Below, in pieces: positions 32,801 to 37,326 of a DNA stretch of 64,000 nt. Under the pieces are notes generated by a model. It saw only the letters and a program-made list of their open reading frames with translations, was not told the origin of the DNA and did no database searches. The stretch spans positions 22,878,001 to 22,942,000 of the forward strand of contig NC_086108.1 in NCBI RefSeq assembly GCF_963921235.1. Reading direction: 5' to 3'. Numbering within the stretch: the first letter of the stretch is position 1; every line of letters begins with the position of its first letter. Source of the stretch: Mobula hypostoma. Taxonomy: Eukaryota. A program made the translations under genes and the position numbers.

Positions 32801-32861
32801 AGCAGCTGTGTTTTTGTTCTGCTCGGTAACAGGCCGAAAGTCTTTATGAAGTCTGAGTAAT

Positions 32862-33090
32862 TGTGGTAAACCATGTATATATGTTGTAACTCGGTTACCT
32901 GTCTGGACACACCCCTCTGCTGACTGCCTCTGTGGCTCCTCCCACAGAGTCCTGTATAAAGGTGTTCGCCTTGCCCCTCCCCCTCAGTCCGGGGGCAGAC
33001 ACTCACTGTGGAGGTCGTATTGTACAGCGAATAAAAGCCTATCAGTATTTTACCAAACCTAGGTCTTTTGGAGTAATTGAAGGTGCTTCA
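32862..33090 (+). repeat. 5' LTR (229 bp)
   Basis: Direct repeat of 37092-37321 (8 substitutions plus 1 indel by eye). TATAAA at 32955 and AATAAA at 33030. Confidence 0.97.
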
Positions 33091-33091
33091 A

Positions 33092-33106
33092 TTTTATTCG
33101 CTGTAC
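33092..33106 (+). promoter_or_regulatory. Primer-binding-site position, self-complementary to the LTR rather than to a tRNA
   Basis: TTTTATTCGCTGTAC is the exact reverse complement of GTACAGCGAATAAAA (33022-33036). It lacks the TGG that pairs with tRNA CCA. Confidence 0.8.
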
Positions 33107-33116
33107 GTTTTAAAAC

Positions 33117-34130
33117 ATGGAACAGTCCCTGAGACCAGAAAAATTAGACCTCCATCCGCAAATGCCTGAAGCTGGAAACGCTTTCGAACTCTGGCTGGCC
33201 TGCTTTGAAGCGTATCTAGAGGAGATTAAAGCGACCGACCCCGTAGCGAAGTGCAGAGTTCTACTCTCCAGGGTCAGTCCACGGGTCTATTCGCTGATCA
33301 GAGACCAGCCGAACTACGACGGCACGATGAACACACTCAAAAGACAATACCTGTGGCCGATAAACAGCGTCTATGCTCGGCACCGTTTAGCGACACGGCA
33401 ACAACGCCTCGGGGAATTGAGTGCTGAGTTTGTCCGGGCCCTACAGACACTCGTGCGAGCCTGCAATTGCCAGGAGCTGACGGCGGCGCAGCATGCAGAA
33501 CTCCTAGTGAGAGACGCCTTCGTCACGGGGACCGGGTCAGTGTACGTGCGCCAGCAGCTGCTGGAAAAAGCCGATCTTACCCTAAGTTCAGCGATCGAGC
33601 TGGCTGATACGTTGGAGGCCGCGCTGCATAACTCCGAGGCTCTCCAGGCACACGATCCCCCGATGGCCTCATGGGCGCCGCAGACCCCTCAACCTGTTGG
33701 CGAATCGACCTCGGCTGCCGCCAGTCGTGAGTCTGTGAAGTGCTACTTCTGCAGACTGGAGAAGCACCCCCGGAAACGCTGCGTGGCCCGACAAGCTACC
33801 TGTTCCAGCTGCGGAAAGAAGGGCCACTTCGCCAAGGTCTGTAAGTCAAAACCGCGAGCGGGATCGAGCAGCGCCGCGTGCGAGACGTGGGGGTCGCCAT
33901 CTTCCCTGCACACTGCCACCACGTGCGAGACATGGGGGCCGCCATCTTCCCTGCACACTGCCACCACGTGCGAGACGTGGGGGTTGCCATCTTCCCTGCA
34001 CGCCACCACCACGTGCGAGACATGGGGGCGGCCATCTTGGTCGGCGCCACCTCCGCCTACGACCAACGGGTGCTCCCGGGGCACCCCACCACGCTGGACC
34101 AAGACAGCGACCCCACCCTGGCTTCTGTGA
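33117..34130 (+). CDS. gag: Gypsy Gag (capsid-like region, two zinc knuckles, 15-aa repeats)
   Basis: ATG 27 nt after the LTR. Knuckle motifs CYFCRLEKHPRKRC and CSSCGKKGHFAKVC. The C-terminal end may be altered by a frameshift. Confidence 0.85.
   Translation: MEQSLRPEKLDLHPQMPEAGNAFELWLACFEAYLEEIKATDPVAKCRVLLSRVSPRVYSLIRDQPNYDGTMNTLKRQYLWPINSVYARHRLATRQQRLGELSAEFVRALQTLVRACNCQELTAAQHAELLVRDAFVTGTGSVYVRQQLLEKADLTLSSAIELADTLEAALHNSEALQAHDPPMASWAPQTPQPVGESTSAAASRESVKCYFCRLEKHPRKRCVARQATCSSCGKKGHFAKVCKSKPRAGSSSAACETWGSPSSLHTATTCETWGPPSSLHTATTCETWGLPSSLHATTTCETWGRPSWSAPPPPTTNGCSRGTPPRWTKTATPPWLL
33878..34040 (+). repeat. 45-bp tandem repeat, ~3.6 copies, inside gag (CETWGxPSSLHxxTT)
   Basis: GTGCGAGAC(G/A)TGGGGG..GCCATCTTCCCTGCAC...CCACCAC repeated with period 45. 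Confidence 0.95.
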
Positions 34131-36986
34131 CCCTCGACCAAAGCGCTCCCCACCAGCTCGCAAGGTCAATGATGGACATCCTGGTGGAGGGGCACAGGAC
34201 AAGCTGCCTGTTTGATACAGGCAGCACGGAGAGTTTTATCCACCCGGCCACGGTGTAGCATTGTGGACTCATGATACAGCCGGTAAGTCGGAGGGTCACC
34301 ATGGCCTCCAGGTCGCATACAGCAGACATCCGGGGGAGTTGTGTAGCGACACTAGTGGTGCAGGGCACAGAATATCAGGACTTTACGTTACTGATCTTGC
34401 CTCAACTGTGTGCCCCTGTGCTGTTGGGGTTGGACTTCCAGAGCCACCTGAAAAGCGTGACAATGAAGTATGATGGGCCCCTCCCGCCAATTACTGTCAT
34501 AAAACCCCTGTTTTGTAGAGATACGTCACATACCCCGCTACTGACCACACACACACACCGACCCGCGCATCCCACCCAACATCATGCCAACTGCCGCACT
34601 ACCGACACCACTTGTGGCCTCTCCACCCTCAGGATCCCTCCCCCACCGCTGTTCGCCAACCTGACCCCCGACTGTAAACCTGTGGCAACTAGAAGCAGGA
34701 GGTACAGCACGGGGGACAGAGCTTTCATTAAGTCGGAGGTGCAGCGGCTGCTCAGGGAAGGGGTCATTGAGGCAAGCACAAGTCCTTGGAGGGCGCAGGT
34801 GGTGGTTGTTCAGAACGGGGAGAAGAATAGGATGGTCGTGGACTATAACCAGACCATCAATAGGTTTACGCAGCTCGACGCATACCCTCTACCCCGCAGC
34901 GCGGATATGGTCAATCAGATAGCACAGTACAAGGTGTACTCAACCATAGACCTAAAATCCGCTTACCATCAGCTCCCCATCCGCCGGGAGGACTGCCCTT
35001 ACACTGCCTTCGAGGCGGATGGCAGGCTTTATCAATTCCTGCGCGTCCCCTTTGGTGTCACGAATGGTGTATCTGTCTTCCAGAGGGCAATGGGCCGGTT
35101 GGTGGACCAGTGCCAACTGAAGGCCACGTTCCCATATCTGGATAACATCACCATCTGCGGTCACGACCAGCAGGATCACGACAACAACCTCCAAAAATTT
35201 CTCCAAGCGGCCAAATCTTTCAACCTCACCTATAACAAGGACAAGTGTGTATTTGGGACCACCCGACTTGCTATCCTTGGGTGTGTCGTGGAGAATGGAG
35301 TCATTGGCCCTGACCCTGACCGTATGCGCCCCTTGTTGGAACTCCCTCTTCCCAATACCCTCAGAGCCCTCAAAAGGTGCCTGGGCTTCTTTTCATATTA
35401 CGTCCAGTGGGTCTCTAACTACGCAGACAAGGCCCGCCCCCGGTCAAGTCCACCACATTCCCCCTCTCTGCCGAGGCCCACGCGGCCTTCAGCTGTATAA
35501 AAGGGGACATTGCCAAAGCAGCAATGCATGCAGTGGATGAGGCCATTCCCTTCCAAGTAGAGAGTGACGCCTCCGACTTTGCGCTGGCTGCTACCCTCAA
35601 CCAGGCAGGAAGACCAGTGGCATTCTTCTCCCGTACCCTTCAAGGCCCTGAAATTCGGCACTCTGCGGTAGAGAAAGAGGCCCAGGCCATAGTGGAAGCT
35701 ATAAGGCACTGGAGGCACTATCTTGCCGGCAAAAGGTTCACCCTGCTAACTGACCAGCGCTCAGTCGCATTCATGTTTAATAATCAGCATCGGAGCAAAA
35801 TCAAAAATGATAAAATTCTGAGATGGAGAATCGAACTCTCCACCTACAGCTATGACATCATGTACAGGCCTGGGAAGCTCAACGAGCCCTCCGATGCCCT
35901 ATCCCGGGGAACATGCGCCAGCGCGCAGATCGACCGACTATACGCCCTACATGTAGACCTTTGCCACCCGGGAGTCACCCAGCTTTTCCACTTCGTGAAA
36001 GCCCGGAACCTGCCTTACTCCCTTGAGGAGATCAGGATGATGACCAGGGACCACTCATCAAGGCCACCCGCCCCTTTGAGCGACTGAGTGTTGACTTTAA
36101 GGGCCCCCTTCCCTCCACCGACTGCAATGTGTACTTTCTTAACGTAATTGACGAGTACTCGCGGTTCCCCTTTGCCATCCCCTGCCCCGACACCACTACC
36201 ACGTCAGTTATAAAAGCCCTGCGCAAGCTCTTCACTCTGTTCAGATACCCATGCTATATCCACAGTGACAGAGGGTCCTCGTTTATGAGTGACGAGCTGC
36301 GCCAATATCTACTGGCTCGGGGAATTGCAACCAGTAGGACCACGAGCTATAATCCCCGGGGGAGTGGACAGGTAGAGAAGGAGAATACCACGGTGTGGAA
36401 AGCCACACTCTTAGCCCTCAGGTCAAAGGGACTGCCGGTCTCCCGCTGGCAGGAGGTCCTTCCCGAGGCACTCCACTCCATCCGCTCCCTATTATGCACG
36501 TCCACCAATGCCACCCCTCATGAGCGGCTCTTTTCTTTTCCCAGAAAGTCAACCACTGGGACCACCCTACCATCTTGGCTGACGTCCCCGGGGCCAGTGC
36601 TGCTCCGGAAACATGCGAGGCGCAATAAATACTCCCCGATGGTCGTGAGGGTTCACTTACTTCATGCGAACCCCCAGTATGCCTACGTGGTTTTACCTGA
36701 TGGGCGGGAGGACACGGTCTCCATCTGCGACCTGGCGCCCGCAGGAGAACCGGGCCCCTACCCTGAACACTCCGTGGTGACTATTGACCCCGTACCCACC
36801 AATGTATGTACCTACGAGACACCGTGCACCCCAAACCCTATACAGACACCACACGACACTCCCATACCGGGCGCGACGCACACGCATGAGGGATTAACAA
36901 CGCCTACCGTGCTGGCACCTGAAGTCAGGCCGGAGCCAGCACAACCGCCATCGCCAGTGCAATCACCGCCGGTGCTACGTAGATAG
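34100..36986 (+). pseudogene. pol: Gypsy pol (protease, RT, RNase H, integrase), disrupted
   Basis: PR: LFDTGS, LLGLDF. RT: SPWRAQVVVV, IDLKSAYHQL, VPFGVTN, YLDN. RNase H: SDAS, EKEAQA, TDQR, DALSR. IN: VDFKGP, SDRG, GQVEKEN. Lesions: TAG at 34256-34258, a frameshift at ~35440, and a deletion/frameshift at ~36051. Confidence 0.95.
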
Positions 36987-37073: not shown

Positions 37074-37087
37074 AAAAAAAGGAGGAG
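37074..37087 (+). promoter_or_regulatory. Polypurine tract
   Basis: AAAAAAAGGAGGAG, 4 nt upstream of the 3' LTR and preceded by a T-run. Confidence 0.85.
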
Positions 37088-37091
37088 TGCA

Positions 37092-37321
37092 TGTCGTAAA
37101 CCATGTATATATGTTGTCACTCGGTTACCTGTCTGGACACACCCCTCTGCTGACTGCCCCTGTGGCTCCTCCCACAGAGTCCTGTATAAAGGTGTTCGCC
37201 TTGCCCCTCCCCCTCAGTCCGGGGGCAGACACTCACTGTGGAGGTTGTATTTTACAGCGAATAAAAGCCTTTCAGTATTTTTACCAAACCTCAGTCTTTT
37301 GGAGTAATTGAAGGTGCTTCA
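37092..37321 (+). repeat. 3' LTR (230 bp)
   Basis: TG...CA direct repeat of the 5' LTR, followed by the TSD GTAAT. Confidence 0.97.
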
Positions 37322-37326
37322 GTAAT

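Follow-up and report, generated by a model that had tools for sequence, protein, structure and literature searches.

Conserved pairing between the primer-binding site and the LTR of a compact Gypsy family in the ray Mobula hypostoma suggests self-priming of the Tf1 type

How does a Gypsy retrotransposon prime its reverse transcription when the site just past its 5' long terminal repeat (LTR) is complementary to a segment of that same LTR? This question is raised by an element in the genome of the ray Mobula hypostoma, located within a stretch of 64,000 nucleotides (nt) of contig NC_086108.1 (assembly GCF_963921235.1, positions 22,878,001 to 22,942,000 of the forward strand) that we analyzed as a whole and refer to as the window; coordinates below count from its first letter. 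The element is a compact 4.46-kb Ty3/gypsy retrotransposon, and the copy in the window is a decayed member of its family. To our knowledge, self-priming has been proven only in the Tf elements of fission yeast; elsewhere, predictions of it concern mainly chromoviruses and a small number of copia lineages from plants. We consider it probable that the ray family starts minus-strand DNA synthesis in the same way as fission-yeast Tf1. This view is well supported because the duplex between LTR and primer-binding site is conserved and covaries across relatives, as set out below.

In the window copy, the 15 nt at 33092-33106, one base past the 5' LTR, are the exact reverse complement (15/15) of the LTR segment at 33022-33036, which we call the arm, and T33021 and G33107 can extend this duplex by one wobble pair. 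The 3' end of the arm is directed at U5, which is the geometry of a primer. When arm and site were searched for in the whole window with up to two mismatches, three sites only were returned, namely the two arms of the duplex and the copy of the arm in the 3' LTR, with 0.01 matches expected by chance. The predicted RNA fold pairs the arms in both the window copy (z -5.3) and a copy of the majority type (z -6.4), and none of 200 shuffled sequences folded as well. What the initial annotation had read from the letters was recovered in this analysis, including the complementarity and its orientation, a site that begins with TTTTATT and not with the TGG of a tRNA-type site, the AATAAA inside the paired arm, and the TATAAA at 32955 with a TCAGT initiator-like motif after it. 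Its assignment of the element to Gypsy also held, with matches of RVT_1 and RT_RNaseH to pol of the window copy and of rve to a family copy that has an open pol frame of 851 amino acids (aa). The gag frame had no Pfam match at E ≤ 0.001.

The family is large and uniform. A query consisting of the LTR plus leader gave 1351 first-look candidates in the 3.48-Gb assembly, and the 40 copies that were scored are 97-100% identical; complete copies measure 4433-4460 bp, with an LTR of 229 bp. With a sea-anemone homologue as the query, 41 scored pol matches in the ray genome lay in open frames of 1203-1357 aa and 18 of them were free of stops within the match, from which we conclude that the family was recently active. 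This search of the ray genome uncovered no other families, as all 30 returned loci belonged to that of the window element. The ray family is young, very abundant and compact, with a single gag-pol frame. Among 60 fetched copies, the primer-binding site was recognizable in 54 and kept in 47 of these. Both arms were present in 35 of the 60, where 27 copies pair over 15/15 positions and eight carry one one-sided substitution, as decay after insertion would give. Within this genome, the family is too uniform for a test of covariation.

Homologues of the ray protein extend well beyond rays. The closest named proteins are those of Mobula (93%), Hypanus (up to 84%), Scyliorhinus (77%) and Narcine (69%), followed at about 60% identity by a sea anemone and many metagenome contigs of about 4 kb; the clade occurs in rays, sharks, a sea anemone and many marine or soil eukaryotes, and the source names given in the homologue search read "uncharacterized protein". 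A protein atlas likewise supplied nothing more specific than generic names. An alignment-based scan of metagenome contigs, where a scan with a single protein had found none, retrieved 80 loci (labeled L plus a number) with pol 40-63% identical to the ray protein. In relatives with two LTRs, these are 120-250 nt long and lie 3.8-4.0 kb apart. Their layout is that of the ray element, with an LTR ending in ...ACA, a one-base spacer (also present in the relatives L048, L049, L065 and L043, which have both LTRs) and a site starting TTTA... that is the perfect complement of an LTR segment ending in ...TAAA.

To score the conservation of the duplex strictly, we required that the arms pair perfectly by Watson-Crick rules over 11 nt or more, that 15-110 nt of loop separate them, and that the right arm be positioned directly after CA and at most 150 nt from the place predicted from pol. 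Enough upstream sequence for this was available in 35 of the 80 loci, and 35 equal-sized windows of pol-coding sequence served as the control. The strict duplex was found in 16 of the 35 testable relatives, with arms of 11-17 nt and differing sequences, and in none of the 35 control windows; L054, L086 and L092, which are outside the testable set, carry it as well. In relatives with 48-63% pol identity to the ray protein, the position of the duplex is retained and its sequence differs. The initial annotation had named a lack of complementarity in related families as grounds for giving up its proposal, and we observed that the complementarity is not lost.

Since the sequences of the arms differ between relatives, it was possible to ask if arm and site change together, a comparison that the initial annotation had also proposed. 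In 20 elements, anchored at the 3' end of the arm and the 5' end of the site, Watson-Crick pairs make up 269 of the 280 cells at positions 1-14, and positions 5-13 show three to four pair types each. True partners pair in uninterrupted runs of 11-17 nt in 18 of the 20 elements (the decayed L055 and L082 reach 3 and 7), whereas arms set against the sites of other elements are 40-100% paired by position with a longest run of 12. Pairs were then counted in an alignment of 19 rows, in which the misaligned L086 was kept, and compared with 500 shuffles. In this alignment 93.0% of cells are paired, compared with 67.6% in the shuffles, none of which reached the observed value. Changes on both sides were seen for 13 of the 15 pairs (8.4 in the shuffles), and the covariation score was 0.634 as opposed to 0.160. 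Sliding the partner by one to three columns lowered the paired cells from 93.0% in register to 31-46%. Single compensated changes can be seen between close relatives; in L035 and L038, for instance, a T/C difference in the arm is matched by A/G in the site. The duplex itself, where it lies, and the way it is conserved and covaries across the clade are direct observations.

Predicted folds agree with these alignments. The arms are paired in all 16 sequences that were folded (ray copies plus 14 relatives), with z values of -3.0 to -7.3 for the stretches from arm to site. Directly 3' of the arm, many relatives have a small predicted hairpin of the form [A/G]CCU...AGGU, and in the majority type of ray copy the duplex is predicted to continue into an extended stem. 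In Tf1, a stem-loop adjoining the primer duplex, resembling a U5-IR structure, is reportedly needed. As a separate observation, the 5' LTR of the window copy has three private changes within 21 nt, at 33041 and 33060-33061, where its 3' LTR and the other family copies read in the element's orientation have T and CA. Jointly these changes make a GCCUA...UAGGU hairpin that resembles those of the invertebrate relatives; they could be due to conversion from another subfamily or to coincidence.

We also considered how the duplex is distributed in a tree of the reverse transcriptase and RNase H regions, which comprised 34 rows (the ray protein and those 33 of the 80 loci whose match ran for 300 aa or more without interruption) and was rooted at its midpoint. 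Duplex-bearing elements occur on both sides of this root, and rows without the duplex adjoin rows with it, as in L050 next to L048 and L049, and L037 and L107 next to L035 and L038. Because the positives span the root and the negatives sit beside positives, the duplex is most simply seen as a trait of the whole retrieved group, and the negatives look like truncated or rearranged copies. The pol proteins of the ray, the sea anemone and many eukaryote contigs are about 60% identical, and the deep branches of the tree show little structure; the elements may have spread horizontally among marine animals.

Two loci in this set have peculiarities of their own. In L072 (138-246), one left arm is followed by two copies of the U5 end with the primer-binding site, whose right arms lie at 180-190 and 236-246; this may reflect a small duplication or an assembly effect. 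L096, which is without the usual duplex, has an unrelated perfect inverted repeat of 16 nt with a 113-nt loop at 1187-1331; about 60 nt past it, at 1390 and in the position expected for the site, CA is followed by TGGCGACC, which may be a tRNA-type site.

In a Tf1-like scheme, the genomic RNA of the ray element would fold so that the arm, as part of the R region of the LTR, pairs back onto the site. The RNase H of the element would cut directly 3' of the arm, after 33036, and the new 3' end would be extended through U5 and the spacer to give about 55 nt of strong-stop DNA, running from 33091 back to 33037; it is the cleavage, the priming and the positions of the RNA ends that we infer here. 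This strong-stop DNA would be transferred to the 3' end of the RNA, onto a short repeat bounded by the arm and the poly(A) site. For this first transfer the RNA 3' end would have to reach past the arm; given the AATAAA within the arm and the candidate downstream element, a G/T-rich stretch, at 33062-33073, poly(A) cleavage about 10-25 nt after the arm would leave such a repeat. Plus-strand synthesis would afterwards copy the primer arm and thereby rewrite the site from it, and this would explain both the exact match between arm and site within families and their joint drift between families. Two side effects, neither likely to be the main function, could follow from the same fold. Since AATAAA sits in the arm, the duplex would hide it in the 5' copy only, and because the gag start codon is 10 nt past the site, translation of gag could be affected. 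Pairing of the site with the arm copy in the 3' LTR, which the initial annotation had suggested, might in addition circularize the RNA.

Several points weigh against self-priming. As judged from the alignments, the covariation shows that the duplex is selected or templated, and covariation alone does not show priming. All relatives with DNA stem from metagenome contigs of eukaryotes, and the strict criterion excludes 19 of the 35 loci that could be tested; among these failures, L055, L082 and L102 have the same layout with one or two mismatches, L095 has a duplex elsewhere in the locus, and L037 and L061 have weaker variants. Perfect Watson-Crick arms were required for detection, and because of this the absence of G-U pairs is partly a detection effect to which we give little weight. 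The contigs of four sequencing runs, none of them recorded as RNA, contain LTR-to-flank junctions and resemble genomic DNA, so that they do not count as RNA support; neither pile-ups of starts or ends nor, among the rows displayed, loose poly(A) ends were seen in them. The tRNA genes compared with the site (see below) represent three isoacceptor types of this genome. Finally, the predicted TATA box and initiator would put the RNA start 36 nt before the arm. On the standard model, a primer with a 36-nt 5' extension would yield an over-long plus-strand strong-stop DNA whose unmatched tail would prevent the second transfer, unless the primer were trimmed by another cut. In the relatives, visible TATA-like motifs occur about 45-57 nt before the arm, with no motif at a constant distance, and a TATA box 30 nt before the arm was not consistently found. 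The sharp 5' limit of the complementarity, at 11-17 nt, agrees with a primer starting at the arm itself. We regard an RNA start at the arm, as in the classical Tf1 geometry, and one about 36 nt upstream as about equally likely.

A bolder version of self-priming would hold that, in a metazoan-wide clade of Gypsy elements lacking a chromodomain, one duplex contains both the primer and the poly(A) signal and is internal to the RNA instead of at the cap. If so, a single fold would decide between polyadenylation at the unpaired 3' copy, read-through at the paired 5' copy, and priming; unlike in Tf1, priming would depend on a second processing step. We put this forward tentatively and think it rather unlikely. 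Among the 20 elements, the hexamer at the 3' end of the arm is AATAAA in six, ATTAAA in five, GTTAAA in four and another one in five. AATAAA or ATTAAA thus ends the arm in 11 of 20, while the other nine include GTTAAA, TTTAAA and GATAAA; in two of the four GTTAAA elements, L038 and L054, the loop contains an AATAAA of its own and the duplex is kept. Overlap of primer arm and poly(A) hexamer is therefore common but not universal. Where the two overlap, masking of the 5' signal is plausible, but it cannot account for the conservation of the duplex. No contigs ending in poly(A), which could have marked poly(A) sites, were found.

The same hexamers bear on an alternative in which the duplex is a conserved RNA structure of the 5' leader, serving to hide the 5' poly(A) signal, in packaging or dimerization, or in the control of gag translation, while another primer is used. 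Such a structure would agree with the arm holding the sole AATAAA of the ray LTR, with the 11 of 20 elements ending their arm in AATAAA or ATTAAA, and with the fact that the hairpin can form only at the 5' end, where the site follows. The proximity of gag, with a start codon 10 nt after the site in the ray element and abutting it in L048, would suit translational control. However, the right arm is always found one base past the LTR, at the place of a primer-binding site, and no other candidate site is present. The nine arms that end in other hexamers, and the retention of the duplex in L038 and L054 despite a separate AATAAA in the loop, also argue against a role in hiding the signal. In retroviruses, moreover, a poly(A) signal 45-50 nt from the cap is often weak anyway. 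We consider a leader structure that does not prime improbable.

That the site binds a host tRNA, a tRNA half or another small RNA, with the match to the LTR being secondary, is in our view highly improbable. Its best precedent is Steamer, a Mag-lineage Gypsy element of similar size that has a tRNA-Leu site, TGGTGTCAGAAG, directly past the LTR (PMC8905726). Unlike Steamer, the elements studied here have no site of this type upstream of pol on their own strand; a search of 164 loci with its 9-nt core gave 12 matches, all on the other strand or elsewhere. The initial annotation had suggested comparing the site with host tRNAs. Among 20 tRNA genes from the ray genome, which cover Lys-UUU, Cys-GCA and Thr-CGU only, the best match to the site is 10/15 with 6 contiguous positions, compared with 15/15 for the LTR, so the expectation that no tRNA would match as well as the LTR stood for these three isoacceptor types. 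A stronger argument than this sampling comes from the sites themselves. None of those in the 20 elements begins with TGG, and they vary from one family to the next in step with the LTR arm of the same family, whereas tRNAs are conserved; a conserved tRNA primer common to these families would not produce this pattern. Chance complementarity in one copy, for which the A/T-richness of both arms could be cited, is refuted by the window statistics (0.01 matches expected), the full pairing in 27 of 35 family copies, the covariation and the duplexes of other sequence in 16 of 35 relatives against 0 of 35 controls, and was rejected.

Self-priming as the preferred reading can be set beside systems described earlier. 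Like Tf1 and Tf2 of Schizosaccharomyces pombe and Tj1 of S. japonicus, for the last of which the same self-priming layout as in Tf1 has been proposed (PMC4600332), the ray family has an LTR-adjacent primer-binding site complementary to RNA derived from its own LTR, with the 3' end of the arm facing U5. In contrast to Tf1, its arm measures 15 nt (11-17 nt in relatives), carries a poly(A) hexamer and may, by prediction, lie 36 nt inside the RNA. The ray element is also much smaller, is without a chromodomain and has an animal host, and cleavage and priming are proven for Tf1 and predicted for the ray family. The vertebrate Tf1/sushi group (sushi-ichi and the V-clade chromoviruses) is said to self-prime, with reference to Butler et al. 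2001 (PMC6317226, PMC4600332). Fish elements of the V clade measure 5.2-6.4 kb, have LTRs of 330-540 bp and mostly have separate gag and pol frames (PMC11117352), whereas the ray family has 4.43-4.46 kb, a 229-bp LTR, a single gag-pol frame and no chromodomain. Neither the ray pol nor any of the 12 aligned relatives had a match to the Chromo family at E ≤ 0.01, and because of this we do not regard the family as a typical Tf1/sushi chromovirus.

Closer similarities are found with the Mag lineage (Mag, SURL, Jule and Steamer), which resembles the ray family in being compact, in having LTRs of around 200 bp and in fusing gag and pol into one frame of about 1300 aa. Fish Mag elements have 4.7-4.8 kb, an LTR of about 210 bp and a fused frame of 1330-1365 aa (PMC11117352), and the relatives have LTRs with the termini TGTTGTG...ACAACA, in agreement with the Mag A motifs TGTTRKR...AYAACA (PMC3601003, table 3). 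Marine invertebrates harbor Cigr-1 and many unnamed Gypsy clades (PMC6238403). A Mag-like placement, suggested by size, frame and LTR ends, is possible, as is a Cigr-1-like one or one in an unnamed clade. In plants, lineage-wide self-priming has been predicted from complementarity to the own LTR in Tcn1 chromoviruses and TAR copia elements (PMC6317226); these share a site complementary to the own LTR with the ray family, but they belong to other superfamilies or lineages and other hosts, and a link to a poly(A) signal is not made in the available excerpt of that paper. Nor does the overlap of primer and poly(A) signal appear in the available excerpt of PMC3601003.

In the literature covered, where subscription journals were thinly represented and a prior description is therefore possible, self-priming was encountered only for Tf1/sushi-type chromoviruses, Tcn1 and some copia lineages. 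From its sequence, the ray case would be self-priming of the Tf1 type in an animal Gypsy clade without a chromodomain, and the poly(A) hexamer in the primer arm would be a variant feature, as yet unproven. The presence of the signature, with its strong covariation, throughout this compact clade suggests that Gypsy elements of animals prime without a tRNA more often than is assumed in annotation. Pipelines for finding LTR elements will give such elements a wrong score or label if they require a site of the tRNA type. As the ray family is young and abundant, it should be possible to detect its RNA ends and cDNA intermediates in tissue of the ray.

The features of the window copy are collected in Table 1. 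Its two LTRs are 95% identical over the 197 nt scored by the repeat finder, and a pairwise alignment of the pair shows about 10 differing positions.

Table 1. Features of the Gypsy element copy in the window.
Feature	Position	Strand	Remark
Target-site duplication GTAAT, 5' side	32857-32861	+	5 bp, identical at both LTR flanks
5' LTR, 229 nt, TG...CA	32862-33090	+	Direct repeat of 37092-37321; ends from pairwise alignment
TATAAA, candidate TATA box	32955-32960	+	Promoter use predicted
Initiator-like TCAGTCC	32984-32990	+	A at 32986, 31 nt past first T of TATAAA; start predicted
LTR arm GTACAGCGAATAAAA, candidate self-primer	33022-33036	+	3' end toward U5; perfect complement of 33092-33106
AATAAA within arm	33030-33035	+	Sole canonical poly(A) hexamer of the LTR; use as signal inferred
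G/T-rich GGTCTTTTGGAG, candidate downstream poly(A) element	33062-33073	+	27 nt after AATAAA; putative
One-base spacer A between LTR end and primer-binding site	33091	+	Read from sequence
Primer-binding site TTTTATTCGCTGTAC	33092-33106	+	Complementary to the element's own LTR
gag frame, 337 aa, two CCHC knuckles	33117-34130	+	From list of open reading frames; knuckles read from translation
pol (protease, reverse transcriptase, RNase H, integrase)	34271-36986	+	Three broken frames in window copy (34271-35500, 35524-36087, 36285-36986)
Polypurine tract AAAAAAAGGAGGAG	37074-37087	+	4 nt before 3' LTR
3' LTR, 230 nt	37092-37321	+	Direct repeat of 5' LTR
3'-LTR copy of arm	37252-37266	+	One mismatch, T at 37252
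Target-site duplication GTAAT, 3' side	37322-37326	+	Same 5 bases as 5' side

Two further observations concern the coding regions. The 3' end of gag (33874-34038) contains three overlapping repeat copies of 75 nt at a spacing of 45 nt, which are 92% alike and encode a peptide of about 15 residues that recurs accordingly; the length variation in the family (4433-4460 bp) may be due in part to this array. Inside the RNase H coding region, on the minus strand at 35817-35907, ARAGORN called a 91-nt tRNA-Gly (CCC), which is probably a false call.

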